Under the pieces are notes generated by a model. It ran no database searches, had not been told where the DNA came from, and saw only the letters and a program-made list of their open reading frames with translations. Positions 3,729-20,505 of a stretch of DNA of 64,000 nt are shown piece after piece. Every line of letters begins with the position of its first letter. Within the stretch, counting starts at the first letter, position 1. Source of the DNA: an uncultured Gammaproteobacteria bacterium (GTDB lineage: Bacteria; Patescibacteriota; Patescibacteriia; UBA1558; 2-01-FULL-52-15); the NCBI GenBank assembly GCA_964422585.1, contig CAYRBH010000005.1, forward strand, positions 3,401 through 67,400, read 5' to 3'. A program made the position numbers and the translations under genes.

Positions 3729-3737
3729 GGTCTCCCT

Positions 3738-3944
3738 ATGGGATTACTACAAGATTTAGAGAGTGCCATCGGTTTTACTGGCTCTGATTCTGATAGCTAT
3801 CACGATTCAGGGCTTGCAGGCATCGGCCATGGTATAGCGCATGGTATACGGGATATCGCTCCAGCCGCGCTCGGCTTAGGTATTGTTGCCGCGGGATTCA
3901 AGATTATCACGAGCGGCCTTTCGGGCAGCAAGAAGAGGCGGTAA
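3738..3944 (+). CDS. Small Gly/His-rich hypothetical protein
   Basis: 68-aa ORF tightly packed between the desaturase and the prenyltransferase (10-bp gaps). GxxxG-rich with a basic C-terminus. No recognisable family. Confidence 0.25.
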   Translation: MGLLQDLESAIGFTGSDSDSYHDSGLAGIGHGIAHGIRDIAPAALGLGIVAAGFKIITSGLSGSKKRR

Positions 3945-3953
3945 TACGGAAGT

Positions 3954-5516
3954 ATGTTCGCCGGACTTCTGTCATCATTTCGTAAAGTAGTAGCGGCACT
4001 CGAGGATACTCGCGTGCCTTTTGTGTATAGTGTTTTGACTTTTTGCGGCTGTATTGCGCTGCGTACTTTTTTTGAAGTGCTGGTGACTCAGAACGATGTT
4101 ATCAAGCCGGTGATGTTCCTAGAGTATGTGATGCTCTATATAGTGCTCGCGCTTTGTATCATACTGCTCTTTAAGTTCGCCACGAAAAAATCAGCGGCTG
4201 TGCTGGCCCGCGTCGTACTGCCATTCTTCGCCATACTGCTGCTCGTGCCGCTCATTGATATACTTGCTGGCTGGAAGGGATATCCATTGATGTACTTAAT
4301 TCCAGAGATACATGGTCCGCTACTTCCACGCTTTTTCACTTTTTTTGGCAATGCGCCTGATGCTGGCGGTATTTCACTGGGCATGCGCATAGAGATGGCT
4401 CTCGCAATCATAGGCAGCGGGCTCTATTTCTATATAAGCACCTTGCAGAAAGCGCGGAGCATCATCTACGCGATAGCTGTCTATGTCATATTCTTCCTTC
4501 TGGCAGCGTCGCCGTATTGGATTGCGGCTATCTATCGCATCGCCGGTTTCTCGTATGATGGTATCAATCAGGTGTCAGATAGCATGTTCATTCGTTTCTT
4601 TTTGATCATCAGTGCCATAGTGACGGCAAGCATTGCCTATTTAGAGAATAAGCGTCTTTTTCACGTTCTGGTTAAGGATTTGCGGTTATTGCGCATAGCG
4701 CATTATGTGCTCATGATCCTTTTTGGCGTCATCCTTGGTATGCAGCGGGCATCGCATATATTCGGTATTGATCAGTTATTCGCGATGGTACTTATTCCAT
4801 TGGCCTTAGTATCGGCTGTTATCTTTTCGATTGTCATGAACAATACAGCTGATATTGAGATAGACCGCATAACGAATAGTGACCGTCCGTTAGTACAGAA
4901 TGAGGTAACCCTGCACACCTATCATGTTATCGGCTGGACCTTCTTCGTCCTGAGTCTCATATTCGCCGCCGCTGTATCTATGTACGCATTCTTTTTCATA
5001 GCGCTTTTCATCCTGGTCTATTTCCTGTATTCAATGCCGCCATTGCGATTGAAGCGCGTACCATTTTTTTCTAAAGTACTGATCGCGCTCAACACTCTGT
5101 TTATGACGATGCTCGGTTTCCTGAGTACGAGCAGGCTGACGATACTCGATTTCCCTTTTGGATTAGGATGCGGGATGGTCATCATGTATACATTCGCTGC
5201 CCAACTCATAGACCTGAAGGATTATGAGGGCGATAAGCGCGCCGGAATACAAACGCTCCCGGTTCTTCTGGGCCTGTCTACAGCTCGCCTGGTGATAGGG
5301 AGTATACTAGTGCTTGCTTATATGTCCGTCTACCTGCTGCTTCCAGATACTCTGCTGATTCTGCCTTTAGTAGTATTCGGCTGTCTACAGTTTCATTTTG
5401 TCATGAAGGTGCCTTATCATGAGAAGCCGATATTCGTGACCTATATCATAAGCCTCCTCATGCTATTGTTGTATTGCTGTACGATAGGAAGCGGTTTTGT
5501 ATCGGGTACTGCGTGA
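3954..5516 (+). CDS. UbiA-family prenyltransferase domain fused to an N-terminal polytopic membrane domain
   Basis: The C-terminal half carries the two Asp-rich UbiA motifs, NNTADIEIDRITNSDRP and DLKDYEGDKRAG, between hydrophobic helices. The N-terminal ~280 aa are additional transmembrane helices of unknown function. Confidence 0.65.
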   Translation: MFAGLLSSFRKVVAALEDTRVPFVYSVLTFCGCIALRTFFEVLVTQNDVIKPVMFLEYVMLYIVLALCIILLFKFATKKSAAVLARVVLPFFAILLLVPLIDILAGWKGYPLMYLIPEIHGPLLPRFFTFFGNAPDAGGISLGMRIEMALAIIGSGLYFYISTLQKARSIIYAIAVYVIFFLLAASPYWIAAIYRIAGFSYDGINQVSDSMFIRFFLIISAIVTASIAYLENKRLFHVLVKDLRLLRIAHYVLMILFGVILGMQRASHIFGIDQLFAMVLIPLALVSAVIFSIVMNNTADIEIDRITNSDRPLVQNEVTLHTYHVIGWTFFVLSLIFAAAVSMYAFFFIALFILVYFLYSMPPLRLKRVPFFSKVLIALNTLFMTMLGFLSTSRLTILDFPFGLGCGMVIMYTFAAQLIDLKDYEGDKRAGIQTLPVLLGLSTARLVIGSILVLAYMSVYLLLPDTLLILPLVVFGCLQFHFVMKVPYHEKPIFVTYIISLLMLLLYCCTIGSGFVSGTA

Positions 5517-5601
5517 AGGCATGCACGGGGAAGAGCAACCTTCGTTTACTGTTTCCGTGAAAGTAGGCTATACTGTAGTCATTCAGCATTAATAACATCC
5601 T

Positions 5602-7983
5602 ATGCGCCAAAAAGTATCTACCTATTTTTACGCTATCTTAGGCGTTTTGTTCGTTATAAGCTTTGGATATCTTTTCTTAACACAGCACCTCAACCCCACG
5701 ACGAATACGAATATCGAGCCGAATACGAACAGCAACGGATCACAGAATCCATCCACCACCACTGGTCCAGGCGCTTTGAAGCAATTCACGAGCTACGATG
5801 ATTTCAAGAAATTCATAACCGATAATTTGACCACGGCTGGCGTTGGTGGAGGGGTCGCGATGCATAGTCTTGCTTCGAATGCTGTCGGAGCAGCCCCTGC
5901 CGCGGCACCTGCTCCTGATACTGCGGGTACTGAGCAGAAAAGCCCTGATACCACCATTCCGGCCGGACCCGATTATTCCCAGACGAATATACAGGTCGCT
6001 GGGGTGGATGAAGCTGATATCATTAAGAGCGATGGAAGCTATTTCTATATCGTTTCAGGGAATAGTCTCGCTATCGTGCAGGCAACGCCTGCGGCCGACG
6101 CAAAGATCGTGAGTACGGTAGCGCTCACTGATTACCCGCAAGGCTTGTATATCAGCGACGATCATACGAAATTGGCAGTGTATGGTAGCCAAAATCAAGT
6201 GTACTATCCGATGGGAGCTGGTGCGAAAGTGATGGCTGGCGGCCCAGTGAGTACCATGATGCCTATTCGTGGCGGTTCGCAGCAGACGTTTTTCAAAGTC
6301 TACGATATTACCGATAAGACACAGCCGAAACTGATCAGGGATGTGAGTTTCGAGGGTTCGGCGACGGATTCTCGTATGGTCGGGAACTTCGTGTACTTTA
6401 TAACGCAGAAAAATGAATACAATTGGTTCGATGGTCCGTATCCGCTCCCGCGTATACTGGACAATGGGAAAGTTGTTGGTGGTGAGCCTGACTCAGCATC
6501 TTATCGTTTCCCGAGCGTCTATTATTTCCCCTTTCCCTATGACAGCTCGAATTTGACGACAGTCTCTGCCATCAATCTGATGGACGCGACCGCAGAGCTT
6601 ACTACTCAAAATTATGTGCTGGAGAACGGACAGCAGATCTACGTATCACCCGAAGATATCTATATAACGTATACGAAAAACCTCGACCAGCAGCAGATAG
6701 AGTATGACGCCATGAAGTCTGTCTATATGGATAAGCTGACTGCCGTCGAGAAGGGGGAAGTGCAGCAGATCGAAGCGGCACCGAACTATATTCTCAATAA
6801 GTATGAGCGCCAGCAAAAAGCGACCATCATATTCCAGAACCATCTGGCAGCATTACCAGAAGTGGAGCAGCAGAGTTTGGAGAAGATTTTCGAAGATACG
6901 GTCAAGCAGAAGTATCAAGAATTGGCTGATCAATTCGAGCAGACTAGCATCTATAGGATCGCTTTTAAGGATGGCGCCCTGACCTATCAGGGGACAGCGG
7001 ATGTGCCGGGAATGGTGATTAATCAGTTCGCGATGGATGAATCGAATGGTTATTTCAGGATCGCTACCACGAAGGATCCTGTGTGGATACCCTATACTGA
7101 TGGAGAGCAAACAGAGAAGCCATACAATAATCTCTATGTGTTAGGGCCTGATATGAAGCGTGTCGGTGCTGTGGAGCATCTAGCAGAGGGTGAGCAGATC
7201 TATTCGGTACGCTTCATGCAGAATAGAGCTTATATGGTCACCTTCAAGCAAGTCGACCCGCTCTTCGTGATAGACGTAGCGGACCCGACTGCTCCGAAGG
7301 TGCTCGGCACCCTCAATGTGCCTGGTTACTCAAGTTATTTGCATCCGCTTGATGAGAACACCTTGATAGGATTAGGCAAAGAAACTGAGACGAACCAGTT
7401 CGGCGCGGTGATACCTAAGGGTATCAAACTATCATTGTTCGACGTGACCGATGTAGCGAATCCGAAAGAGACCGCGAGCTATAGCTTCAATACGCAATCA
7501 TCCGATTCACCGGCTCTCTATGATCATAAAGCCTTCCTGTATTCAGGCACTAAGGACCTCCTTGTGATACCGCTGCAAGTCTGGTCAGCTGGATATGGTG
7601 CGCCGAAAGGACTCTCAGATAATTTCATGGGAGCTGCGGTATTCACGGTGACGAAAGACAGTATAGCCCTGAAAGGATTCGTGAAGCACGCGAGCGATGT
7701 GCAGAATGGTTACACCTATGATCAGTATGTGAAGCGGAGTATGTATATCGATGATGTTCTCTATACCCTTTCGGATGCGTATTTGAAGGCAAATAACCTT
7801 TCCGATTTGAAAGAGATCAAGAGCATCGCTTTGCCGGCACTCCAGCCAGTCCCTGTCCAAAACGAAACGAAGCCTTCGCAGGGAGGTGCAACTTCTGATG
7901 CTCCGCCCGCGCCTGCCAGCGTGCCGCCTGCGGCCGGTTCTGGTGGCAGCGCATCAGGCGCAGCAACATCGCCGACATATTAG
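5602..7983 (+). CDS. Secreted or membrane-anchored beta-propeller domain protein (COG4880-like), Pro/Ala-rich C-terminus
   Basis: An N-terminal hydrophobic anchor is followed by a T/N/P low-complexity linker. The long central region has repeated beta-strand-like blocks resembling the archaeal/CPR 'beta-propeller domain' family, and the tail is PAPASVPPAAGSGG-rich. Confidence 0.5.
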   Translation: MRQKVSTYFYAILGVLFVISFGYLFLTQHLNPTTNTNIEPNTNSNGSQNPSTTTGPGALKQFTSYDDFKKFITDNLTTAGVGGGVAMHSLASNAVGAAPAAAPAPDTAGTEQKSPDTTIPAGPDYSQTNIQVAGVDEADIIKSDGSYFYIVSGNSLAIVQATPAADAKIVSTVALTDYPQGLYISDDHTKLAVYGSQNQVYYPMGAGAKVMAGGPVSTMMPIRGGSQQTFFKVYDITDKTQPKLIRDVSFEGSATDSRMVGNFVYFITQKNEYNWFDGPYPLPRILDNGKVVGGEPDSASYRFPSVYYFPFPYDSSNLTTVSAINLMDATAELTTQNYVLENGQQIYVSPEDIYITYTKNLDQQQIEYDAMKSVYMDKLTAVEKGEVQQIEAAPNYILNKYERQQKATIIFQNHLAALPEVEQQSLEKIFEDTVKQKYQELADQFEQTSIYRIAFKDGALTYQGTADVPGMVINQFAMDESNGYFRIATTKDPVWIPYTDGEQTEKPYNNLYVLGPDMKRVGAVEHLAEGEQIYSVRFMQNRAYMVTFKQVDPLFVIDVADPTAPKVLGTLNVPGYSSYLHPLDENTLIGLGKETETNQFGAVIPKGIKLSLFDVTDVANPKETASYSFNTQSSDSPALYDHKAFLYSGTKDLLVIPLQVWSAGYGAPKGLSDNFMGAAVFTVTKDSIALKGFVKHASDVQNGYTYDQYVKRSMYIDDVLYTLSDAYLKANNLSDLKEIKSIALPALQPVPVQNETKPSQGGATSDAPPAPASVPPAAGSGGSASGAATSPTY

Positions 7984-9459: not shown

Positions 9460-10485
9460 GTGTATTTGGACCGCTATAATTTTACTTTCCCTAAGGCATT
9501 GATAGCCCAGAAGCCTGTGCATCCGCGTGATGCCGCGCGGCTTCTTATTTTCGATCGCAGAAAGAAGAAGACGGCTTTCGTAACCTTTAAGGATCTGCCC
9601 AAGTTCTTGCCTAGCGGATCCGTACTGGTCTTGAATCAGACCAAGGTCATCCCGGCGCGGCTGTTCGTGAAGAAAGAGACAGGCGGCAGGGTCGAAATAC
9701 TTTATCTGAGCACAGAGGGGAAGAACATCAAAGCATTAGCGAATAAGAAAGTAGCCATTGGAGCGCGACTCATCCTCTCCAAGAGGTTTTCTTTCGTTGT
9801 TATGAAGCAGGTAGGTTCAGAGTATTTCTTGAAGCCATCATTTCCTCTCAAAGAATTGGATGGCATTTTTGAACGATATGGGCATACTCCGCTACCGCCC
9901 TATATTAAACATTCACTGCTCTCAGAAAAGAAGTTGCGAGAGGAATACCAGACTGTCTTCGCGAAAGAAAGGGGTTCGGTCGCAGCGCCTACAGCTTCGT
10001 TGCACATTACGAATAGACTTTTGAAAGAGTTACAGCGTCGAGGTATCGCTGTAGTATATGTGACATTGCATGTCGGTCTTGGCACTTTTGCTTCAGTTAC
10101 TGAGCGGCACATACGCTCAAAGACATTGCACCATGAGCGTTATCATATCTCGAAAGAGGCTGCGACATTTTTGAATCGAGCCAAGAAAGAAGGACGGCCA
10201 ATCATTGCGGTGGGCACGACCGTTGTACGCACATTAGAGTCGTCGGCTAGTTCTCGTCGGCATTGTAGAGAGGCGGTATCCGGAGACACAAGCCTTTTCA
10301 TTCAGGAAGGCTATCAATTCAAGTTCATTGACGGCATGATCACGAATTTCCACGTGCCGAAGTCGAGTTTATTGATGCTTGTCTCCGCTTTCGTAGGACG
10401 TGCTCAGGTTTTGAAATTATATCGCCACGCTATTCGAAAGAAGTTTCGATTATTTTCATTCGGTGACGGGATGCTTTTGCTTTGA
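9460..10485 (+). CDS. queA: S-adenosylmethionine:tRNA ribosyltransferase-isomerase
   Basis: Collinear with E. coli QueA across its length: VIPARLF, GHTPLPPYI, YQTV, APTASLH, TLHVGLGTF, AVGTTVVRTLES, TNFHVPKSSLLMLVSAF, RLFSFGDGM. Confidence 0.93.
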   Translation: MYLDRYNFTFPKALIAQKPVHPRDAARLLIFDRRKKKTAFVTFKDLPKFLPSGSVLVLNQTKVIPARLFVKKETGGRVEILYLSTEGKNIKALANKKVAIGARLILSKRFSFVVMKQVGSEYFLKPSFPLKELDGIFERYGHTPLPPYIKHSLLSEKKLREEYQTVFAKERGSVAAPTASLHITNRLLKELQRRGIAVVYVTLHVGLGTFASVTERHIRSKTLHHERYHISKEAATFLNRAKKEGRPIIAVGTTVVRTLESSASSRRHCREAVSGDTSLFIQEGYQFKFIDGMITNFHVPKSSLLMLVSAFVGRAQVLKLYRHAIRKKFRLFSFGDGMLLL

Positions 10486-10866
10486 AATTGGGAAGGGTGT
10501 CCGCACCTCTTCCCGATAGGCCTTCTGGCTTTGGTTCGGTGCAGACACCCTTTGTGCCCGTGCGCGCAAAGTCCCTGTGGACTTAAGCTAACGAACGGCA
10601 CGCGTCATGGAAATTTTACGAGCGGCGCATGATCGCTCTGGCGACCTCCTTCCGACGTTGCGGTCCGTCGTGTTCGTGGGAACAATAGTTGCACACCCAG
10701 CTTCCGGCCTATCAGCGGTGCGTCCGCTTTGCCGTAGGCACACAATGCGCAGAGCTGCTGTTCACGCGTGTACATAACAGAATAGACTCTTCTTTTTTTG
10801 TTGTCAATTACATCAATACAGGCACGCAGTACCATGGACTAAGCTCGCATATGCTATACTGCATAC

Positions 10867-11697
10867 ATGCACAGAACAGCAACAGCCCGAGAGATACGAA
10901 CATTTCGAAAGCTTCTCTACGATTTTTTCAAAAAAGAGGGGCGAGACTTGCCTTGGAGGAACACGAAAGACCCCTATCATATCCTTGTTTCGGAAATAAT
11001 GCTGCAGCAAACCCAAGTCGATCGAACGATACCAAAATTCAAGGAGTTTATTCGCACATTTCCTACGGCCCAGAAACTTGCCACGGCCTCGACTAAGAAA
11101 GTGCTGCAAGTTTGGCAAGGAATGGGCTATAACAGGCGAGTGTTGAATCTGCAGAAAGCAGCACAGGCTATCGTGACGCGCTATGCAGGCACGGTGCCGC
11201 ACACGATCGAGCAGTTGGTTGATTTACCGGGCATCGGTCCCTATACTGCGCGAGCCATCATGGCTTTTGCATTCGATCAGCCGGTGGTCCTTATAGAGAC
11301 CAATGTACGCACGGTGTACTTATATCATTTTTTCCCGAAGAAACAAAAGGTACGTGATGATGTTCTAATGCCTTTGATCGAGCAAACACTCGATAGCAAG
11401 CATCCGCGTCAATGGTACTCTGCTCTGATGGACTATGGCTCGTATTTGAAAAAGACAGTACCGAATCCTTCTCGCAGGAGCATACATCATACGAAGCAAT
11501 CGAAATTCGAAGGCTCACTTCGGCAAGCGCGGGGCGCTGTGCTGCGTTCACTACTTGGGACGAGTCAGCTTTCAGCCGAACAGATAGCTCATGCATCAGG
11601 TATCGAAGCGCCTCGAGTTCGTGAAGCACTTGCTGCGCTCCGGGCAGAGGGGATAGTGATGTTCGGCAAGAAAGGCTATCACTTGGTTGAGCACTAG
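10867..11697 (+). CDS. HhH-GPD base-excision DNA glycosylase (MutY/EndoIII-like, no obvious Fe-S cysteine cluster)
   Basis: LPWRNTKDPYHILVSEIMLQQTQV and the helix-hairpin-helix LVDLPGIGPYTARAIMAFAF with a catalytic Asp region. The C-terminal part lacks the Cys-x6-Cys-x2-Cys-x5-Cys cluster. Confidence 0.8.
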   Translation: MHRTATAREIRTFRKLLYDFFKKEGRDLPWRNTKDPYHILVSEIMLQQTQVDRTIPKFKEFIRTFPTAQKLATASTKKVLQVWQGMGYNRRVLNLQKAAQAIVTRYAGTVPHTIEQLVDLPGIGPYTARAIMAFAFDQPVVLIETNVRTVYLYHFFPKKQKVRDDVLMPLIEQTLDSKHPRQWYSALMDYGSYLKKTVPNPSRRSIHHTKQSKFEGSLRQARGAVLRSLLGTSQLSAEQIAHASGIEAPRVREALAALRAEGIVMFGKKGYHLVEH

Positions 11698-11761
11698 GCA
11701 TACCTGCTCGCTTGACCCCCAGAGAGAGGCTGGCATATACTGAAGCTACCCAGTCAATCAT

Positions 11762-12196
11762 ATGCAGAACAAAAACATACAGCTCGTTCCGATCATGCTC
11801 CTCTATGCAGTGGCGTTCATGGTCACTGGATGCGCAACATCAACGAAACAAGCTCCTGCTGCAGCAGCGAGTCCTACGCAACAACAGAATACGAACACGA
11901 CTGCAGCGCCGGTTCAGCCAGGACCCAAGGAATTTTCGATCACTGCCTCGAATTTCTCCTATGACGTGAAAGAGATAGATGTGAACAAGGGTGACACAGT
12001 AACTATACATGTCAAAGATGTGGAAGGGTATCATGATTGGGTCATCGATGCGTTCAAGACCAGAACCAAACAGCTGCAGCCAGGCGAAACTGCTACGATC
12101 ACGTTCGTAGCGGATCAGACTGGCAGCTTCGAATATTACAGTAGTATAGGTCAGCAGCGATCGATCGGCATGACCGGGAAAGTAGTGGTCCATTAA
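11762..12196 (+). CDS. Cupredoxin-like lipoprotein with degenerate type-1 copper site
   Basis: Lipobox-like signal (...MVTGC). The C-terminal FEYYSSIGQQRSIGMTGKVVV aligns with the plastocyanin FYCSPHQGAGMVGKVTV loop, but the Cys and His copper ligands are replaced. Confidence 0.6.
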   Translation: MQNKNIQLVPIMLLYAVAFMVTGCATSTKQAPAAAASPTQQQNTNTTAAPVQPGPKEFSITASNFSYDVKEIDVNKGDTVTIHVKDVEGYHDWVIDAFKTRTKQLQPGETATITFVADQTGSFEYYSSIGQQRSIGMTGKVVVH

Positions 12197-12234
12197 ATAA
12201 TTCGAGGGCATAGTAAGTCGGACAGTATACGATT

Positions 12235-12957
12235 ATGATAGACACAGGTATCATCGGTATCGGAGTAGCTTTTGCCGGCGGGTTGGTCTCATTTTTTGCG
12301 CCCTGCATCTTGCCGTTGATCCCGGGGTTTCTGGCCTACCTTGCTGGCACCACGGTCGCTGGCGCTCAGGTCAAACGAAAAGACATGTTCATTCACAGCT
12401 TACTCTTCGTATGTGGGTTCTCATTGGTCTTTTCATTGCTTGGAGTATTGTTGAATACGGTGCTGCAACACGCCGCCTATAGCGTGCAAGAGTGGCTCTC
12501 GCGTATCGGTGGTATTATCATTATCTTTTTTGGATTATATATTACTGGTTTATTGCATATCGGATTTCTAGAGAAAACATTGAAGATACAAGTGCGAGAG
12601 AAAAGCAGCCGCTCTCGCTATGTGACATCCATACTGTTTGGCGCGGCCTTTGCTGCCGGCTGGACCCCATGCGTCGGCATTGCTCTCGGGGCTATTTTGG
12701 GTCTTGCCGCGTCACAACCAGGCATCTCATTCTATCTATTGTTGGCCTACTCTATAGGATTGGGCATTCCCTTCCTTATCGCTGGTGTCTTCGCAGCAGA
12801 AGTACAGCGGGGCTTGCACCGTCTTGGTGTGATCGCCCAGTATATTAATATTCTGTTTGGCATCATCCTTATCATCCTGGGTATCCTTATTTTCACTCAA
12901 AATCTTGCCCAAATCGCTAATTGGGATCTATTAAATCAAGTGCTATTAAGCAAATAA
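12235..12957 (+). CDS. ccdA: Cytochrome c-type biogenesis/thiol-disulfide electron transporter CcdA (DsbD beta-domain family)
   Basis: Six transmembrane helices with the two hallmark membrane-embedded cysteines, FFAPCILPLIPG and GWTPCVGIALG. Confidence 0.85.
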   Translation: MIDTGIIGIGVAFAGGLVSFFAPCILPLIPGFLAYLAGTTVAGAQVKRKDMFIHSLLFVCGFSLVFSLLGVLLNTVLQHAAYSVQEWLSRIGGIIIIFFGLYITGLLHIGFLEKTLKIQVREKSSRSRYVTSILFGAAFAAGWTPCVGIALGAILGLAASQPGISFYLLLAYSIGLGIPFLIAGVFAAEVQRGLHRLGVIAQYINILFGIILIILGILIFTQNLAQIANWDLLNQVLLSK

Positions 12958-12961
12958 TCCT

Positions 12962-14080
12962 ATGCAAGAACGAATTCGACTGCTGTTACTGTGCCTTGTT
13001 ATCGGGGTCATTATCGGGGCTATCGTCTATCTGCAAAAGCAGAAGGTAAATCCGATAGCAAGTTCTTCTGGTTCCCAGCAAGCAGCGATCGTTCCGAAAG
13101 GGCTCTCTATGACTGCGGCTGAAAAAGCTAAAAAATATCCTGTAGCGAAAGAGATCAGCACACCTGACGGATTCATCAATACTGACAAGATCAGTATCGG
13201 TGATCTGATCGGTAAGAAGGTCATTCTCGTCGATTTCTGGACCTATAGCTGTATTAATTGTCAGCGCACGACGCCGTATCTGAATGCTTGGTATGATAAG
13301 TATAAGGACCAGGGTCTCGAGATCATCGGTATTCATACGCCGGAATTTGATTTTGAAAAAAATTATGACAATGTAAAAAAAGCAGTCGAGAAAGAAGGTA
13401 TCAAGTTTCCGGTCGTTCTGGATAATGACTACTCGACCTGGATGGCCTATGGTAATGAGTATTGGCCGCGCAAGTACCTGATCGATATCGATGGGTATAT
13501 TGTCTATGATCATATCGGCGAGGGCGCGTATGACGAGACCGAGCAGAAGATACAGGCAGCTCTTGCTGAGCGTATGGCAGCTTTGAAGGAGAATGGCACG
13601 GTACAGTCGGGCCTTGTATCGCCAGATCATGTAGAGATCCCGAAGGCCCAAAGTCCCGAGACCTATTTTGGCGCATCGAGGAATAATCTGGGCTCGGGTA
13701 CTTCGCAGGCCGTTGGTGAACAGTCATTCACGAAACCAGCGAGTCTGGTCAATGATACAGGCTATTTGGTCGGGGATTGGGATATACAGAATGAGTATGC
13801 GCAGTCGAAAAGTGACAATGCGAGCGTACTATTCCGCTACACGGCTGAGAATGTCTATGTCGTCGCCAGTAGCGACACGCCTGTTCGGGCTAAAGTACTG
13901 ATCGACGGCCAGCCGGTAGGTGATCGAGCGGGTGCCGATGTCGGCAGTGATGGCTCGGTGATGATTAGCGGCGATCAGTTATTCGAGTTGGTAGCTGATC
14001 CGAAAGGAGTAGGCACCCATACCCTTGAATTGCAGATCGAGAAGCCAGGCGCCAAGGTATTCACATTCACTTTCGGATAG
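12962..14080 (+). CDS. Membrane-anchored thioredoxin-fold thiol:disulfide oxidoreductase (TlpA/ResA-like) with extra C-terminal domain
   Basis: N-terminal transmembrane anchor and a thioredoxin fold with WTYSCINCQ (CxxC) in TlpA-like context (VILVDFWTYSC..C). The start is 5 bp downstream of the ccdA stop. Confidence 0.8.
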   Translation: MQERIRLLLLCLVIGVIIGAIVYLQKQKVNPIASSSGSQQAAIVPKGLSMTAAEKAKKYPVAKEISTPDGFINTDKISIGDLIGKKVILVDFWTYSCINCQRTTPYLNAWYDKYKDQGLEIIGIHTPEFDFEKNYDNVKKAVEKEGIKFPVVLDNDYSTWMAYGNEYWPRKYLIDIDGYIVYDHIGEGAYDETEQKIQAALAERMAALKENGTVQSGLVSPDHVEIPKAQSPETYFGASRNNLGSGTSQAVGEQSFTKPASLVNDTGYLVGDWDIQNEYAQSKSDNASVLFRYTAENVYVVASSDTPVRAKVLIDGQPVGDRAGADVGSDGSVMISGDQLFELVADPKGVGTHTLELQIEKPGAKVFTFTFG

Positions 14081-14327
14081 AACAGTAGTATACTTACTAC
14101 GAGCGGACGAGATGTGAAGGCAACAGGGGGAAAAGTAAGCTATACGCCAACCTCCGGGGAACACCGCGCGATGTTCGCGGCCTCGAACAGGCAGGCACCT
14201 GACCGGCGTCTATCGCCCTTACACTTTCATATTTTTTCCGCGGAGGCTGCGTGACTTCGGTTGCGCAGCCTCAAACCTATTTAGAACTTGCGATTTTTCA
14301 CATCATAGGTTAGCCTATGTCAGTAAT

Positions 14328-14401
14328 GGGCCTATGGTCTAGTGGTATGACACGGCATTCGCATTGCTGAAGCGGGAGTTCGATTCTCCCTAGGTCCACC
14401 A
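14328..14401 (+). tRNA. tRNA-Ala (anticodon CGC)
   Basis: Hand-folded cloverleaf: acceptor GGGCCTA/TAGGTCC containing the G3:U70 alanine identity pair, anticodon stem CGGCA/TGCTG with loop TTCGCAT, T-loop TTCGATT, encoded CCA. Confidence 0.85.
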
Positions 14402-14433
14402 AAAATATTAATTCTCACAGTTGAGCACCGACT

Positions 14434-14784
14434 ATGAATGAGATGTTAAGAGATGCTTATCATGAAGGCGAGCCAGATCTTCACCTTGAGGAGGATAACT
14501 GGCTTGCATTGCCGGAGGAACTCAGAGAACGCATCGAAGGCTATATACAAGGCACCGCAGTTGACTGGAGCGAGGAAGAGCGGGTTCAGTTACAGCGCTA
14601 TTTACGATGGAATTTGATCTATCTGCATAAACTTATCTATAAGGAACAGCAAGAGCATGCGGCCGAAGGAACGGATGTTATAATGAAAGGGCTACTCGAG
14701 AGATATCAGGCGGTGCAGCGACGTATAGAGATGAAAGTGCTCGCGGATGCATTGCATCGTGAGCAGGAGAAAGAGCAGCAATGA
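14434..14784 (+). CDS. Hypothetical acidic coiled-coil protein
   Basis: 116-aa ORF with E/Q/R-rich heptad-like sequence. No family recognised. Confidence 0.35.
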   Translation: MNEMLRDAYHEGEPDLHLEEDNWLALPEELRERIEGYIQGTAVDWSEEERVQLQRYLRWNLIYLHKLIYKEQQEHAAEGTDVIMKGLLERYQAVQRRIEMKVLADALHREQEKEQQ

Positions 14785-14793
14785 TCTAAGAGT

Positions 14794-15285
14794 ATGGATT
14801 GGCAATTACTTTTCGGCCATAAAACAGTAGCTTTCTTCGACCTCTGGTCCATCGAGCATATCGTGAGCGGTATCTCATTCGGTTCCCTCGCCTTCCTGCA
14901 TACGCGTAAGAAATTCTCAAATGTCGTTGCTCAATTCGGCGCTACGCTTGAGCATCTCGCAGAGAAGCAGCGCGCTGTTCTCACGCGTTTCGACGTCATC
15001 ACTGTTCTCTTTATTGCTTATTTTTGGGAGACACTCGAGCACTATCTCGAGACAGGACTGCTCGGGCCCAAAGTAGTGTACTGGTTCCAGGGAGTGGAGG
15101 CTTGGGATAACCGTTTCATTTCGGATCCGTTGATGCTGCTGCTCGGCTATTGGATAGTGAAACGTTGGCCGAAACTTGTCTGGCCGGCGCGGATATTTTC
15201 TATCGTGTGGCTTTATTTCCACATTTTTGTTTTCCCGCATAGTATGTATCTGCAGGATATGTTGGACCGCATTCTGTACCATTGA
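14794..15285 (+). CDS. Hypothetical membrane protein
   Basis: 163-aa ORF with several hydrophobic helices, 10 bp after the preceding ORF. No family recognised. Confidence 0.35.
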   Translation: MDWQLLFGHKTVAFFDLWSIEHIVSGISFGSLAFLHTRKKFSNVVAQFGATLEHLAEKQRAVLTRFDVITVLFIAYFWETLEHYLETGLLGPKVVYWFQGVEAWDNRFISDPLMLLLGYWIVKRWPKLVWPARIFSIVWLYFHIFVFPHSMYLQDMLDRILYH

Positions 15286-15324: not shown

Positions 15325-16701
15325 ATGCATCCATCTATGAAAAGATTCATCATACAGATTATACTCTTCTATCTTCGTTTCTGGGCCCGTCTCGCGATAG
15401 CAGTGCATCGGCCTCTAGTCATTGGTATCGCGGGTTCTGTCGGTAAATCATCGACGAAACAGGTACTGTTGGCAGCCTTAAGTTCTTTCGGTAAGACGAT
15501 TGCCACTCAGGGCAACTCAGAAACAGGCTTGCCGCTTTCTATACTCGGTGTGCAGGTGGATGGATATCGGATGCTTGATTGGCTTCGCTATTTGTGGCAA
15601 GCGCCATTCGGCATCTTTAACCTGGTCGGCGTTGACTATCTTATTGCTGAGATGGGCATCGATAGTCCGAGGCCGCCGAAGAATATGAGGTATCTCTTGA
15701 CGATCGTGGAGCCCGATATCGCGGTCATCGTCCAAGAATCAGCGGCACACACCGAGGAATTCGAACAGCTACTGACGCCGGAGGAGCGGAAGCATTTGTC
15801 AGACGAGCAACGTCTCCGGCGATTAGTGCAGTTTATTATTGAGGAAGATATAATGATGGCACAGACGCAGCGCTGTACCAAGGTCATCTATAATGCCGAT
15901 ACTGAGGAGCTCGCGGCAGCTATATCTCAAATCCAACATGGAGGTAAGAAGTTTTTTGCTTTCGGCGCTTCGAATCACATGGATGCCTACTATCTGACTA
16001 CAGCGACTTCTCTTGATGAAACGCGTTTCGATATGATGGTGCTGGGCGCTCCGGTAACGGTCAGGTATGCTAAAGCGGTGTTACCTCGTGAGTACCAGGA
16101 AGTGACAGCCGCGGCATTGCTGGCATGTGCAGTATTGGGGTTGAATGTGAATCAAGCTGCCGCCGCGATAGAAAAAACGGTATCCCTGCCAAAAGGCCGC
16201 GCAAGCGTGTTCAAAGGTATTGCTGCTTCGACCATACTAGATTCTTCATATAATGCTTCACGAGAATCAGTCATGGCTTTCCTGGATCTTCTGGAGCAGT
16301 TAAAGAAGCAGACAGGCAGTGTTGTTATCTTTGCTTGTGGAGATATGCGGGAGCTGGGAGCAGAAGCAAAGATTGAGCATGCGGCAGTAGCGAACAGGAT
16401 CCTCGAAGTCGTAGATATCGCTTATTGTGTTGGTGCTGTAACCAAAGATTATGTCATGCCGCTTTTGCAGGATAAAGTTCCATCGAAGTGGTTTCAGAAT
16501 GCTCGCGAGCTGGGGGCGCATTTGAAAGAGCATATGCCTCAGGGAGCAATTGTGCTTTTCAAAGGCTCGCAGAATACTATCTTTCTGGAGGAAGCCATCA
16601 AGGCTGTTCTTGCTGACCCGAACGACGAAAGAAAACTCTGCAGACAAGAGGAATATTGGTTAGCTATGAAGAAGCGGCTTGGTTTTCTGAACGAAGCATA
16701 A
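15325..16701 (+). CDS. murF: Mur ligase, MurF-like (UDP-MurNAc-tripeptide:D-Ala-D-Ala ligase), N-terminal domain reduced to a hydrophobic segment
   Basis: P-loop IGIAGSVGKSSTK, DSSYNASRES (MurF DDSYNAN-like) and C-terminal ACGDMRELG (MurF GDMLELG-like). The P-loop sits at aa ~35, so the ~80-aa N-terminal domain of canonical MurF is missing. Confidence 0.7.
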   Translation: MHPSMKRFIIQIILFYLRFWARLAIAVHRPLVIGIAGSVGKSSTKQVLLAALSSFGKTIATQGNSETGLPLSILGVQVDGYRMLDWLRYLWQAPFGIFNLVGVDYLIAEMGIDSPRPPKNMRYLLTIVEPDIAVIVQESAAHTEEFEQLLTPEERKHLSDEQRLRRLVQFIIEEDIMMAQTQRCTKVIYNADTEELAAAISQIQHGGKKFFAFGASNHMDAYYLTTATSLDETRFDMMVLGAPVTVRYAKAVLPREYQEVTAAALLACAVLGLNVNQAAAAIEKTVSLPKGRASVFKGIAASTILDSSYNASRESVMAFLDLLEQLKKQTGSVVIFACGDMRELGAEAKIEHAAVANRILEVVDIAYCVGAVTKDYVMPLLQDKVPSKWFQNARELGAHLKEHMPQGAIVLFKGSQNTIFLEEAIKAVLADPNDERKLCRQEEYWLAMKKRLGFLNEA

Positions 16702-17899
16702 GCGCTTTCTCAACAGCTTTTCGCTCATCCCATGTAATCTCGCCTTCTGCCATCGCGAGTGATTGTTCATGGCCTTTCCCAGCAAGAACGATCGTGTCGC
16801 CTGGTTTCGCTATCTGTATGGCGAAGTCAATAGCTTGTTGTCGGTCAGGAATAGCATAGAGCAACTTCATGCCCGCAGGGGCTATCGTTCCTGGGTCAAG
16901 TTTGGTAAACCCAGCAATGCCTTGCGCTATCATCGCATTGATAGCAAGCACGTTCTCATCGCGAGGATCATCGGCAGTCAGTATGATAGTCGAAGCATAG
17001 CGAGCGGCAGCTCGGCCCATATCTGGGCGTTTTTTCGTGTCGCGTTTGCCGGCTGAACCGAAGAGCACGATGAGTCTGCCTTTGGTGGTTTCTTTCGCTG
17101 CCCGGAATATATTTTCAAGCGCGTTCGGCGTATGGGCGAAGTCAACAATAATGCGGAAGTCCTGATCATACACAATTTCTTGCCTTCCTTTCGGTGCGGT
17201 GAATGACTGGAGGCTCTGCACAATATCCTGCTTCGCAAGGCCGAGTTTCTCGGCGGCTGCGTAGGCTGCGAGCGCGTTCATCACATTGAATGAGCCAAGC
17301 AGCTGAAGTTTGAAAGGGTATTTCATCGGGGTATACTTCGCCTTTTGATTCACCGCCGAGTAACTGATGATCTTATCTGATCTCAATGTGCGCACTAAGA
17401 GTTCATAGGACCGGTCATCATAATTGATAATGGCGGTGTCCGCTGCTTTCAGCAAGATACATTTAGCCTGTGTATACCGTTCATAGGTTTTGTGATAATC
17501 CAGATGTTCATTCGTGATATTCGTCAGGATGCCTATGGAGAAATGGATGCCAGCGACACGGTTCTGATCCAATGCATGCGAGGTCGTCTCAAGCACGGCG
17601 TAGGTGCAGCCTTTTTGGACCGCGGTTCTTAGTAATTTTTGCACGGTGAAGGAAGAGGGTGTGGTGACGTGCAGACCAATAGCATACTGCTCATCATTGA
17701 TCAGTGCTCCGACAGTGGTAATGACGATACCTTTCTTCCCGGAGTCGCGGAGTATGCGATAGAGCATATGCGCGGTCGTCGTCTTGCCGTCAGTACCGGT
17801 AATGCCTACGACGGTAAGCTTCCGCGAGGGGAATCCATAGATCAGATTGGCTAGACAAGCCTGGATCAGATGATAGAAATTTTTGATAGATTGCCACAT
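16664..17899 (-). CDS. murE: Mur ligase, MurE-like (adds diamino acid), lacking canonical N-terminal domain
   Basis: P-loop VVGITGTDGKTTTAHML at aa ~33 and the MurE-specific DNPR-like motif LTADDPRDE near the C-terminus. There is no ~90-aa N-terminal UDP-binding domain. Confidence 0.75.
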   Translation of the reverse strand: MWQSIKNFYHLIQACLANLIYGFPSRKLTVVGITGTDGKTTTAHMLYRILRDSGKKGIVITTVGALINDEQYAIGLHVTTPSSFTVQKLLRTAVQKGCTYAVLETTSHALDQNRVAGIHFSIGILTNITNEHLDYHKTYERYTQAKCILLKAADTAIINYDDRSYELLVRTLRSDKIISYSAVNQKAKYTPMKYPFKLQLLGSFNVMNALAAYAAAEKLGLAKQDIVQSLQSFTAPKGRQEIVYDQDFRIIVDFAHTPNALENIFRAAKETTKGRLIVLFGSAGKRDTKKRPDMGRAAARYASTIILTADDPRDENVLAINAMIAQGIAGFTKLDPGTIAPAGMKLLYAIPDRQQAIDFAIQIAKPGDTIVLAGKGHEQSLAMAEGEITWDERKAVEKALMLRSENQAASS

Positions 17900-17901
17900 A
17901 C

Positions 17902-20505
17902 TTATTTCCCCCCTAGCATCTTCGCATATTTTTTGAATTCATTTCCTTTCTCTATGAAATTTTTCCACAGAGAATAGCTTGGCGATGCGGTTGACAGTAA
18001 ACAGATACTGCCTGGCTGAGTGTATTTGTAGGCAAAAGCGATTGCTCGTTCTATACTTCTCGTCTCAAATACCCTAAGTCCTTTCTGGGACTTGAGCATT
18101 CGCTTGCCGGTATCAGGAAACAGGACAATATTTCGTATCTTATATTTCCGTACGGTCTTCTCAAGTCGCGCAAAATCATAACCGCGATCTTCGCCACCCA
18201 GGAAAATCGTATCAACTTTTTTTAACGCTTTGATAGCCATAATGGTTGAATCAGGCGTTGTGGAAATAGCATCGTCATAGAAAGTAATTCCTTTGAACGT
18301 GCCAATGTTCTCAAGTCGATGGGGCAGCGGTTTGAAGTTCTTGATTCCTTTACGTATTGCCGCGTCTGAAATACCAAGCTGCCGGACAACTTTGATCGCG
18401 GCGCGTATATTCTGCATATTATGATCGCCAATGAGAGGAATGTCAGATTTTTTCAATGGGATTTTCGCATTGAAAGGCGCGACGATTGCGATATCCTGTG
18501 AACTCTGGAACCTGAATATATTTTTTTTCGCGGCATAGTAGTTCCCAAGTCCGCCATGATAGGTCATATGATCAGGGAAGAGATTGAGTAGTAGCGCGAT
18601 ATTCGGTGAATAGTCGATATCATCGAGCATATAGCTCGAAAGCTCTATGACAAAGATCTCTTTCGGATTAATTCTGGTAAGTAAAGTCGCGAGCATCGGA
18701 TTGCCGATATTGCCGACGAGCCGTACTTTTTTGCCAGCTGCTCGCAGCATCGCGTAGATGAGACTTACCGTCGTGCTTTTGCCCTTGGTGCCAGTAACAC
18801 CGATCGTGAAATTTTTATTCTCAGCGAAAAAGATATTGGTGGCCGTGGTATAGGGAATGGTGATTTTATATTTTGGTATGCCTGGTGTTTTGAGCGCAAG
18901 ATCATAGTGATCTTGTTTTGTGAGATAGTTTTTATCGAATTTCTGATCGAGGATCCCGATCTTCAGGTGAGGGTATTTTTTTCGTAGGTATTTTTCAGTG
19001 GCTTTTCCCTCGACATCATAGCCGATAATGCACACAGTCTTGATGCCAAGTAGTCTGAAGGACGCGGGTGTTGTTGGCGCTGGTTGCGTTTTGAATACTT
19101 CAGTAATGAGCGCGCGGCCATTTCGTATCTGAGGAAGAAAGGTTTTGACCACGAGACTTTCTTTGAAGTGTTTGGCCGCGAGGTAGAGTGCCGCGCGCGA
19201 CTCTTCGAAGGTGCCAACGCAATCAAATGGCTTATAGTTCCCGAAACCAAGGGTATTTTTATAAGTCAGCAGAAGTGTTTTGTCTTCGAAAAGATTCTTC
19301 CCAAATATGCTAATTAGTTTTTTCTTTGGAAGAAATGGCGCGAGTATCAGAAAAACGAAAGCGCATTTCGGACACGCGCCGCACCAGCGCGTATTCGGCG
19401 TAGTTTTCGCGCTAGCGGAGCTTCTATTACAGCTTGAGAAGAGTGAATGATACTTTGTATGCCTGGCGAACAGTTCCGCTATTCTTATTTCATATAATTG
19501 TCGCAGCAACGAGAAGTAGACAATGTCAGGGGTGATGAATTTCCTGGTGTAGTTTTGCAGTAATGCCTCGAATTCGGCGGATTTGCTCCATTGATGATTG
19601 ATCATGTCGCCACGATAGCGCGTGTTCCCGAAATTGCTGCTCTGCTCATTGCTCACAATGACGTACCTGTATTTATAGAGCGCTGCCGAGAGTAGGCCGA
19701 GGAACGCGAATATGGCTGAAATAGGGATATGTCCAGTATAACCCCCTTCATGTTTCTGAAGGATTTTCGGATCCAATATTCTTCGCAGCTGCAATGAAGG
19801 ATTTCCGATTTTTTGTATAACGGCTTTGGCTGTAGCATCTTTTCTCCGTGTCTCAATATGAAATGAGGTCACATCGAACTCATGCAGCAGCTCGGCAGAT
19901 ACAATAGAGTCTTTGCCACCGCCGATGCCGAGGAGTATTTTTTCAAACTGTCCAACTGGAGCGGCAGCAGTCTTGACGGTAGAGTAAGGGAAGCGGGCGA
20001 CATGTTGTGGATCAAGCCTATTCCGATAGAGGAATTCACCGAGACCTTTACGATAGACACTGTTCCAGAACTCAGCTTGTTCTTTCGACAGTTTGAAAGG
20101 CAGAGTTACCTTCGGCGGGCAATACAGTTTATAGTAGCTAATACCCAAGATGAGATGCAGCGGCTCGAGGAATTTCCGAAGTGTCTCGTGATCTAGTTTC
20201 TGAGACGGAGCTTTCGGGAGTATGACCCGCTCGGTAAAGGTAAGAGGCTTTCTATCTGAGAAGGTGATCTCATACGTAAAAGAAAAGGAGCGCCTCTGGG
20301 CGGTATAGGCGTATCCTCGGAAGTGAAATGCTTGGGCTTTTGGTCGCATAGTGAGCGCTGCAAGATGCGTAGTTATCCTACTGTACTTAGCGGAATTTTC
20401 CAAGAGAGCAGGGCTTCTTCCCTTTTTCGCAATAGTATGCAAATCTATAGCTGCTATGCGCAAGAAAAAACGATTCATCGTCATCTGCGACAATATCCGG
20501 AGCAC
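17902..20505 (-). CDS. Fusion protein: N-terminal PP-loop ATP-pyrophosphatase-like domain (~480 aa) + complete MurD-like ligase. Start codon uncertain (alternative Met would place it at 20349)
   Basis: The C-terminal ~380 aa carry a MurD Rossmann N-domain (KTVCIIGYDVEGKA), P-loop IGVTGTKGKSTT and GNIGNPML. The N-terminal half carries an SGGxDS-like PP-loop (LLGIGGGKDS) and a WCGACPKC cysteine cluster. Translated by eye. Confidence 0.7.
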   Translation of the reverse strand: MLRILSQMTMNRFFLRIAAIDLHTIAKKGRSPALLENSAKYSRITTHLAALTMRPKAQAFHFRGYAYTAQRRSFSFTYEITFSDRKPLTFTERVILPKAPSQKLDHETLRKFLEPLHLILGISYYKLYCPPKVTLPFKLSKEQAEFWNSVYRKGLGEFLYRNRLDPQHVARFPYSTVKTAAAPVGQFEKILLGIGGGKDSIVSAELLHEFDVTSFHIETRRKDATAKAVIQKIGNPSLQLRRILDPKILQKHEGGYTGHIPISAIFAFLGLLSAALYKYRYVIVSNEQSSNFGNTRYRGDMINHQWSKSAEFEALLQNYTRKFITPDIVYFSLLRQLYEIRIAELFARHTKYHSLFSSCNRSSASAKTTPNTRWCGACPKCAFVFLILAPFLPKKKLISIFGKNLFEDKTLLLTYKNTLGFGNYKPFDCVGTFEESRAALYLAAKHFKESLVVKTFLPQIRNGRALITEVFKTQPAPTTPASFRLLGIKTVCIIGYDVEGKATEKYLRKKYPHLKIGILDQKFDKNYLTKQDHYDLALKTPGIPKYKITIPYTTATNIFFAENKNFTIGVTGTKGKSTTVSLIYAMLRAAGKKVRLVGNIGNPMLATLLTRINPKEIFVIELSSYMLDDIDYSPNIALLLNLFPDHMTYHGGLGNYYAAKKNIFRFQSSQDIAIVAPFNAKIPLKKSDIPLIGDHNMQNIRAAIKVVRQLGISDAAIRKGIKNFKPLPHRLENIGTFKGITFYDDAISTTPDSTIMAIKALKKVDTIFLGGEDRGYDFARLEKTVRKYKIRNIVLFPDTGKRMLKSQKGLRVFETRSIERAIAFAYKYTQPGSICLLSTASPSYSLWKNFIEKGNEFKKYAKMLGGK

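Follow-up and report, generated by a model that had tools for sequence, protein, structure and literature searches.

A split DipZ-type reductase pair beside a cupredoxin-family lipoprotein with two substituted copper ligands in a Patescibacteria genome

The DNA analysed here, called the window throughout, is a 64-kb stretch of a Patescibacteria genome (contig CAYRBH010000005.1 of assembly GCA_964422585.1), and this work deals with three adjoining genes at its positions 11762-14080. Gene 1 encodes a lipoprotein of the cupredoxin family, gene 2 the membrane electron transporter CcdA and gene 3 a membrane-anchored thioredoxin-like protein. The reading that we favour, with moderate confidence, is that genes 2 and 3 constitute a split DipZ providing reductant for repair, and that gene 1 is a ligand-less lipoprotein of the blue copper family. 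Reductant supply to extracytoplasmic repair enzymes is the best-supported role for the pair, as suggested by the gene neighbourhoods of its relatives. By itself the locus has little weight, the reductase pair being one of thousands of near-identical ones and the copper-less cupredoxin a single lineage-specific variant. Its wider interest is that a very common CcdA-thioredoxin module of Patescibacteria can be assigned to the DipZ type and tied to extracytoplasmic thioredoxin and methionine sulfoxide reductase (Msr) partners, not to cytochromes. This is relevant to the protection of envelope proteins in Patescibacteria epibionts, which are surface-attached and exposed to oxygen.

Identity of the three genes

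The three genes are on the same strand (+), with intergenic gaps of 38 bp between genes 1 and 2 and 4 bp between genes 2 and 3. An initial annotation of the window had already described this arrangement and the motifs of the products, and both the coordinates of the open reading frames (ORFs) and Pfam agree with it. The features of the locus are the following:

11712..11741, +, promoter-like site TTGACC-18 nt-TATACT, a consensus match only, 20 bp 5' of the start codon of the cupredoxin gene
11762..12196, +, gene 1, lipoprotein of the Patescibacteria type-1-copper cupredoxin family with its copper site disabled (C127S, H132Q), 144 aa
11762..11833, +, signal peptide and lipobox, residues 1-24 (FMVTG-C24), read from the sequence
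11924..12193, +, cupredoxin beta-sandwich domain (residues 55-144), modelled with seven strands
12032..12034, +, codon of His91, first copper ligand, retained (invariant alignment column)
12140..12142, +, Ser127 (AGT) replacing the copper-ligand Cys (TGC in the sister genome; alignment and codon comparison)
12155..12157, +, Gln132 (CAG) replacing the second copper-ligand His (CAC in the sister genome; alignment and codon comparison)
12170..12172, +, codon of Met137, axial ligand, retained (alignment)
12235..12957, +, gene 2, CcdA (DsbD_TM), membrane thiol-disulfide electron transporter, 240 aa
12304..12306, +, Cys24 of CcdA (APCILP), conserved in 27 of 32 homologues
12670..12672, +, Cys146 of CcdA (TPCVG), conserved in 32 of 32 homologues
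12962..14080, +, gene 3, membrane-anchored DipZ-type ectodomain protein (thioredoxin-like domain plus PF17991), 372 aa
13250..13261, +, active site C97-I-N-C100 in the context WTYSCINCQR (residues 93-102), invariant in the alignment of thioredoxin homologues
13652..14077, +, PF17991 (Thioredoxin_10, 'Thioredoxin like C-terminal domain'), residues 231-372, Pfam 2.1e-33

Gene 2 was recognised by the DsbD_TM profile (PF02683; 5e-16, 59.1 bits against a cutoff of 27.1), its residues 10-221 matching profile positions 6-216 of 219, and it has both of the membrane cysteines that the initial annotation attributed to it. The adjacency to, or fusion with, a thioredoxin gene suggests that CcdA would transfer electrons from a cytoplasmic thioredoxin to an external partner of thioredoxin fold.

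In gene 3 an N-terminal membrane anchor is followed by a Redoxin/AhpC-TSA domain (residues 74-197) and afterwards by PF17991, which is covered over its full profile length (116.3 bits against a cutoff of 27.1). Residues 63-371 align with the DipZ structures PDB 2hyx/5cyy across both domains of the ectodomain (E 1.8e-53). The SCINC active site has been described in Rv2874, the DipZ of Mycobacterium tuberculosis (PMC6107167, PMC7479077), and the literature on Rv2874 gives its PF17991-equivalent domain a carbohydrate-binding-module fold. Genes 2 and 3 share with DipZ/Rv2874 the SCINC site, PF17991 and a two-cysteine transporter of CcdA type. However, in DipZ the CcdA-type membrane domain and the ectodomain are fused, whereas here two genes with a 4-bp gap encode them without a covalent link, and the ectodomain carries a separate membrane anchor. 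Fused CcdA-thioredoxin-PF17991 proteins are found among the homologues (L027, with 568 aa, L113 and L119). As the genes are separate here and the fused form exists in relatives, the pair is called a split DipZ and not DipZ, and genes 2 and 3 are best described as a split version of Mycobacterium DipZ/Rv2874. The best NCBIfam match of gene 3 was sub-threshold and corresponded to ResA (NF002854; 73.4 bits against a cutoff of 170). In the initial annotation gene 3 had been taken for a TlpA/ResA-like CxxC thioredoxin with an extra domain. The anchor, the CxxC motif and the extra domain, now PF17991, were all found, but the protein belongs to a common split DipZ and not to an unusual TlpA/ResA variant.

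For gene 3, 7993 of the 8000 scored candidates had E<1e-20, most of them being Patescibacteria proteins of ~370 aa with 50-60% identity; with about 8000 homologues the split-DipZ pair is ordinary and extremely common in this group. Homologues of all three proteins come exclusively from metagenome-assembled genomes of Patescibacteria, also known as the candidate phyla radiation (CPR). The closest genome found, GCA_964402565.1 (hereafter the sister), is collinear with the window from a fatty-acid desaturase gene through the thioredoxin gene. Protein identities between both genomes range from 63% to 86%, and CcdA (82.5%) and the thioredoxin (79.8%) are the best conserved genes of the neighbourhood.

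Gene 1 has a lipobox (VTGC24), a low-complexity linker and a C-terminal cupredoxin domain, and its close relatives P0002, P0003, P0005, L166 and L167 display the same SGC/GGC/AGC lipobox. The domain was identified by Cupredoxin_1 (3.5e-9) and Copper-bind (PF00127; 1.7e-5, 25.6 bits against a cutoff of 21.2), both above their gathering scores. The cupredoxin fold, for which the initial annotation had suggested a structure prediction, was recovered with AlphaFold at a predicted local distance difference test score (pLDDT) of 98 across residues 55-144. The best Foldseek matches of this model were cupredoxins (E 3e-9, root-mean-square deviation 0.8-1.8 Å), and the structural matches include 4hcf, auracyanin, the CuA domain of NosZ and the N-terminal domain of Hyphomicrobium NirK. 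Among solved structures, the family profile best matched the N-terminal cupredoxin of Hyphomicrobium NirK, an electron-donating domain (E 1e-27). Gene 1 has in common with plastocyanin, auracyanin and the N-terminal tethered cupredoxin of Hyphomicrobium denitrificans NirK (PDB 2dv6, 6tfd) both the fold and an export signal, and its family shares with the type-1 blue copper proteins the loop spacing Cys-x4-His-x4-Met. Unlike these proteins, gene 1 has Ser and Gln at the positions of the Cys and the second His.

The replacement of both residues had been pointed out in the initial annotation, and it was borne out by the alignment with 28 homologues. In this alignment the motif FHDWVID...FEYYCSVGxHRxxGM is nearly invariant, C127 and H132 being near-invariant. 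Gene 1 lacks the complete His-Cys-His-Met set, as two of the four ligands are lost, although the length of the ligand loop is unchanged. The ligands were also screened in 215 family sequences, taken from the best 150 of an exhaustive search (HMMER over 1.84 billion representatives, 4239 matches) and 67 word-indexed matches. Wherever the ligand loop could be read, both the Cys and the second His were present, with Ser and Gln in the window protein as the sole exception; the axial Met varies in just three sequences. No other ligand-less member that could define a pseudo-cupredoxin subfamily appeared among the best 150 exhaustive and the 67 word-indexed matches. A scan of genome contigs with a pattern requiring FEYYCS is biased against ligand-less members and was not used for this question. 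The proposal that a pseudo-cupredoxin is a feature of the operon did not hold, since a single ligand-less protein out of about 215 family members cannot be what defines the operon's function.

A hidden Markov model of the family built without the window protein gave it 153.7 bits, which is the 11th percentile of 186 members (median 171.5), and the score increased to 165.6 bits after restoring both ligands in silico. The domain is 64% identical to that of the sister, with a nonsynonymous divergence (dN) of 0.235, compared with 0.26 for QueA and 0.32 for the HhH glycosylase; synonymous sites between both genomes are saturated (pS about 0.75-0.85), so that dN alone is comparable and dN/dS is unusable. 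The scaffold is not generally decayed, and the loss is specific to the ligands. Gene 1 is best regarded as a relative by descent of the blue copper (plastocyanin-like) lipoprotein family, which is widespread in Patescibacteria, and not as a blue copper protein itself. With Cys127 and His132 replaced, it would be expected to form no type-1 copper centre and to carry no electrons as its relatives presumably do. Given that the fold is normally conserved, the loss of ligands could be recent or tolerated, or the protein could have been retained for a copper-independent role. Cupredoxin folds that have lost their copper ligands exist in CyoA of the Escherichia coli quinol oxidase and in the early-nodulin-like phytocyanins of plants. 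Nevertheless, those are whole families with a conserved loss, whereas here it affects a single sequence of an otherwise ligand-keeping family.

Regarding transcription, the promoter-like site 5' of gene 1 is the best consensus match in the region 10400-14900 (10 of 12 positions). A simple scan revealed no promoter-like or terminator-like site in the 38-bp and 4-bp gaps, and no terminator 3' of gene 3. The spacing and the consensus match give a weak indication that genes 1-3 may form a single transcript. A 9-bp GC-rich hairpin (GAGGCTGCG...CGCAGCCTC) is present at 14237-14275, ~160 bp 3' of the thioredoxin gene and 50 bp 5' of a tRNA-Ala gene; it has neither a T tract nor an Rfam match.

Clients of the reductase pair in related genomes

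The neighbourhood of the module was analysed at 80 metagenome loci found with the thioredoxin alignment, at which CcdA is almost always adjacent to or fused with the thioredoxin. A small anchored WCPxC thioredoxin is encoded directly upstream in 16 of these loci. MsrA is present in 16, often 12-24 bp downstream, and MsrB in 10. In addition, a small membrane protein was found in 12 of the 80 loci and an XRE-type regulator in 7. Pfam supported the identity of the neighbours (PMSR 5e-60, SelR 5e-51 and Thioredoxin), and the link to Msr holds in low-GC Patescibacteria-like loci as well as in high-GC loci with a fused DipZ. CcsBA was never found beside the homologous CcdA-thioredoxin modules of this set. 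The idea, put forward in the initial annotation, of a reducing pathway that serves something other than cytochrome c maturation is supported by these neighbourhoods.

A recurrent form of the module in Patescibacteria (L086-L129, e.g., L099:48-3602 and L094:4116-7490) comprises an XRE regulator, a small membrane protein, a small WCPxC thioredoxin, CcdA, a DipZ-like thioredoxin, MsrA and sometimes MsrB. The small membrane protein has ~120 aa and no Pfam match, and the pair that it forms with the XRE regulator goes with the module and not with the cupredoxin. At this locus, neither the window nor the sister has the regulator, the small thioredoxin or any Msr gene.

By homology with the DsbD/CcdA systems, a cytoplasmic thioredoxin would reduce the Cys24/Cys146 pair of CcdA. 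Transmembrane transfer of these electrons by CcdA would then reduce the C97-x-x-C100 disulfide in the thioredoxin-like ectodomain of the anchored protein, and the ectodomain would in turn reduce extracytoplasmic client proteins. The neighbourhoods in relatives point to the small anchored thioredoxin and MsrA/MsrB as the most likely clients. The pathway would then be one of oxidative-damage repair of surface proteins, analogous to the streptococcal CcdA-Etrx-MsrAB system, and not one of cytochrome c maturation.

The CcdA-Etrx-MsrAB2 system is outlined for Streptococcus pneumoniae and S. gordonii as an extracellular methionine sulfoxide repair pathway (PMC3914529). The resemblance lies in the combination of CcdA with a surface protein of thioredoxin fold in a group without cytochrome c, and in the msrA and msrB genes located directly downstream in other Patescibacteria modules. 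However, the streptococcal partner is the lipoprotein Etrx, whereas here it is a DipZ-type thioredoxin with an extra C-terminal domain, and msrA and msrB are not linked to it in the window. As the linkage to msr is absent here and present in relatives, it may be said that the pair works like CcdA-Etrx-MsrAB, and not that it is a member of it.

The cupredoxin beside the reductase genes and alternative readings

A second set of neighbourhoods, 80 cupredoxin loci from GTDB genomes, was considered together with the module set. A DipZ-like gene is located within 6 kb of the cupredoxin in only one of the cupredoxin loci (L027, 2 kb away), and none of the 80 metagenome module loci has a cupredoxin. 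A general cupredoxin-CcdA-thioredoxin operon of Patescibacteria was accordingly discarded, as it is missing in 79 of the 80 cupredoxin loci and in all 80 module loci; the association is limited to one clade. Within that subclade, the cupredoxin gene is directly upstream of ccdA in the window, the sister and L167. The order in the sister is HhH glycosylase, intact cupredoxin, CcdA and thioredoxin (80% identical). L166 and L167, with thioredoxins 59-63% identical, also have an intact cupredoxin upstream of the module. In L166, a Komeilibacteria metagenome-assembled genome, a fusion of a CHRD-like domain and a cupredoxin is followed by a peptidase, a thioredoxin, CcdA and the DipZ-like thioredoxin. 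The cupredoxin accompanies the module in these four genomes, and the copper site is intact in all but that of the window.

The cupredoxin of L167 is encoded between the XRE/small-membrane-protein pair and ccdA, which is the slot of the small thioredoxin in other lineages, and L169 and L170 have CHRD-like proteins in that same slot, one of them with a sub-threshold cupredoxin-like domain. These data suggest that the cupredoxin was recruited into the operon of the module in this subclade, implying at least co-regulation, and gene 1 probably belongs to the same transcript as the ccdA gene directly downstream of it. The conserved order in four genomes is the sole feature that goes past what is known.

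The secreted proteins of L166:1510-2406, L170:2743-3648 and L169:2735-3679 share an N-terminal domain with the motif QPAHIHxGxC...YVxCGD and two Cys, and their genes are directly upstream of the thioredoxin, CcdA and DipZ-like genes. The same domain, also present in L040, L041 and L049, has one of three fusion partners: a type-1 cupredoxin, a degenerate cupredoxin-like domain or RskA_C. Its assignment to CHRD was rejected, the matches being sub-threshold (E about 1e-3), and it is therefore named CHRD-like only.

At the 80 GTDB loci, the commonest immediate neighbour of the cupredoxin is a NOX-like protein with Ferric_reduct, FAD_binding_8 and NAD_binding_1 domains. Its gene is 7-64 bp from an intact cupredoxin, usually downstream, in at least 10 loci (L002, L005, L009, L015 at 4451-5764, L026, L029, L045, L052, L064 and L074). 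Other recurrent neighbours of the family cupredoxins are CopA-like ATPases, MsrA/B, TspO and an MsrQ-like protein. No NOX-like, CopA-like, TspO or MsrQ-like gene, no XRE/small-membrane-protein pair and no second cupredoxin was found in the 64-kb window. The CPR cupredoxins have been proposed as electron donors to NirK, their own membrane donor being stated as unknown (PMC5581439, PMC12931201). The NOX-like protein may be this missing donor. Patescibacteria 'plastocyanin' genes thus repeatedly adjoin transmembrane electron exporters, NOX-like in many lineages and CcdA-thioredoxin in this subclade, and such adjacency offers a testable answer to how electrons reach an extracytoplasmic cupredoxin proposed to feed NirK.

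According to one alternative, the DipZ-like reductase of this subclade would have the cupredoxin as a direct client. The reductase could feed cytoplasmic electrons to the Cu(II) protein, in a thiol-based electron export, or, like TlpA with CoxB/ScoI, it could maintain the ligand Cys in a reduced state so that copper can be inserted. In both cases the protein of the window would represent a natural knock-out or a repurposed copper-free partner. In the TlpA-ScoI/CoxB system of Bradyrhizobium a reductase of thioredoxin fold prepares the Cys ligands of a cupredoxin-fold copper site, and the gene order of the subclade would fit a similar pairing of a TlpA-like reductase with a cupredoxin-fold copper protein. 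However, CuA has two Cys able to form a disulfide, a type-1 site has one and the window protein none. The gene positions described above speak for a direct client, namely the cupredoxin gene adjoining ccdA in three genomes, its location within the module in L166 and at a distance of 2 kb in L027, as well as the cupredoxin and CHRD-like proteins in the slot of the small thioredoxin. The same is true of the electron exporters that most often adjoin the family elsewhere and of the missing membrane donor. On the other side, 79 of the cupredoxin loci have no module and the module loci have no cupredoxin, and a single-Cys type-1 site cannot make the intramolecular disulfide that is the usual target of a thioredoxin-fold reductase. 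We could cite no precedent for a one-electron copper centre that is fed by two-electron thiol chemistry. In addition, the cupredoxin of the window has no such Cys, yet CcdA and the thioredoxin are the best conserved genes of the neighbourhood; since both are maintained after the loss of the client Cys, other clients must exist. On balance a direct client is unlikely.

Several points weigh against the view that the locus combines a split DipZ for repair with a separate ligand-less lipoprotein. A tblastn search revealed no MsrA, MsrB or small thioredoxin gene in the 64-kb window, and the conserved order in four genomes hints at a functional tie that two separate components leave unexplained. Purifying selection on the ligand-less protein is unmeasurable because of the saturation against its only close relative. 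Co-transcription is suggested by nothing other than the spacing and the consensus promoter match. Furthermore, the searches cover the 64-kb window, and cytochromes c, NirK, Msr or a second cupredoxin could be encoded elsewhere in the genome.

Reductive correction of disulfides is a different function that the CcdA-thioredoxin pair could have. As a disulfide isomerase or reductase, it would correct the disulfides introduced by a DsbA-like protein into the Cys-rich surface proteins at 33-59 kb, a link that the initial annotation had raised. The genes concerned belong to a type IV secretion-like cluster:

33115-59651, type IV secretion-like cluster (Pfam scans)
52636-54543, TraG/VirB4-like ATPase
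56967-57617, DsbA-like protein (Thioredoxin_4 1e-24), directly upstream of two T4SS_pilin-domain proteins
57620-58525 and 58539-59651, paralogous T4SS_pilin-domain proteins with 17 and 18 Cys, respectively

This cluster also encodes an exported protein of 3283 aa with 155 Cys, for which only a weak CBM_4_9 match was obtained, and an 852-aa TrbL/VirB6-like protein. The two T4SS_pilin-domain paralogues are secreted and have identical N-terminal 40 residues. An oxidative folding pathway usually requires a reductive counterpart, as in the DsbC/DsbD systems. The presence of a DsbA-like oxidative pathway just upstream of the 17- and 18-Cys proteins, together with the 155-Cys protein in the same window, makes a reductive or isomerising counterpart plausible. 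In L169 (6196-7017) the DipZ-like gene is followed 3' by DoxX and VKOR genes, a disulfide-forming enzyme beside the reducing module. However, the DsbA-like locus and the module are more than 40 kb apart. VKOR aside, no DsbA- or pilin-type cluster is among the neighbour clusters listed, and the comparative signal favours Msr and the small thioredoxin. A link between the module and the DsbA-like and Cys-rich proteins, 20-45 kb away, is plausible without comparative support, and disulfide correction as the function of the pair is quite unlikely.

The NOX-like and the CcdA-thioredoxin systems both move electrons from the cytoplasm to the outside. On this basis, the blue-copper lipoprotein of the subclade could be the electron acceptor of the CcdA/DipZ-like pathway, and elsewhere that of the NOX-like flavocytochrome, which we consider doubtful and rather improbable. 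If true, fermentative cells without a respiratory chain would gain a minimal electron export to an external copper carrier, and from it to NirK or to the host. In that case the window genome would have naturally lost the function of the carrier and kept the reductase for other clients.

An ordinary System II pair for cytochrome c maturation (CcdA plus ResA/CcsX), with cytochromes and CcsBA encoded elsewhere, could also be considered, because ResA is the best sub-threshold match (73 bits) and CcdA/DipZ have been named as components of cytochrome c maturation (PMC3781833). Like gene 3, ResA/CcsX is a membrane-anchored protein with a TlpA-like thioredoxin fold adjoining ccdA. Nevertheless, gene 3 is far below the ResA cutoff and its full-length match is DipZ, including the extra PF17991 domain, and neither ResB/ResC nor cytochromes are near it in any related locus. 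In agreement with the initial annotation, motif searches and Pfam scans of the other genes gave no cytochrome c or heme-lyase gene in the 64-kb window. Its only two CxxCH motifs, in LeuRS and in the 155-Cys giant protein, are incidental. Neither the Trp-rich motif of CcsA/ResC nor any multi-CxxCH protein was detected in the window or in the 160 related loci. Moreover, the cytochrome c reductase of M. tuberculosis is CcsX (Rv3673c), distinct from Rv2874 (PMC3781833), and electron transport chains are generally described as missing from CPR lineages (PMC5581439). A System II pair is therefore very improbable.

Finally, it is hardly credible that C127S and H132Q arose from errors in sequencing or assembly, or represent a minority variant of the population, and that the real protein is a normal blue copper protein. 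The variant is a singleton, and both assemblies carrying it may stem from the same reads. However, two assemblers gave an identical protein of 144 aa (the second in the Logan assembly of run SRR12313479). The changes amount to three substitutions over two codons (TGC>AGT, CAC>CAG) and are found amid many ordinary differences with respect to the sister, and there is neither a frameshift nor a low-complexity context.

Other features of the window

Apart from the type IV secretion-like cluster, the remaining genes of the window are housekeeping genes. An Rfam scan at the gathering threshold identified tRNA-Ala alone, and tRNA-Pro was matched in a targeted scan. Upstream of the module, at 10867-11697, is the gene of an HhH-GPD DNA glycosylase with a C-terminal winged-helix domain. 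It occupies this position also in the sister (L083), L166 and L170, and synteny extends past the closest relatives. Two adjoining ORFs of 116 and 163 aa are located 3' of tRNA-Ala, at 14434-15285. Neither has a Pfam or NCBIfam match, the second resembles a multi-pass membrane protein, and both were also called in the independent Logan contig L001.

The region 2607-5516 encodes a protein of the fatty-acid desaturase family (373 aa, without Cys; identity to its counterpart in the sister, 83%) as well as a UbiA prenyltransferase of 520 aa, extended N-terminally by ~260 residues. As CPR bacteria have been reported to lack electron transport chains (PMC5581439), these lipid- or quinone-related genes are unexpected in such a genome. 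Three genes of the Mur-ligase family are present at 15325-20505, encoding proteins of 458 aa (+), 411 aa (-) and 867 aa (-); the domains of the last one begin at about residue 570, after a long N-terminal region without a family match. Additionally, two proteins with TSP3_bac (bacterial thrombospondin type-3) calcium-binding repeats are encoded at 23659-25035 and 32349-33101, the second immediately upstream of the giant Cys-rich protein.

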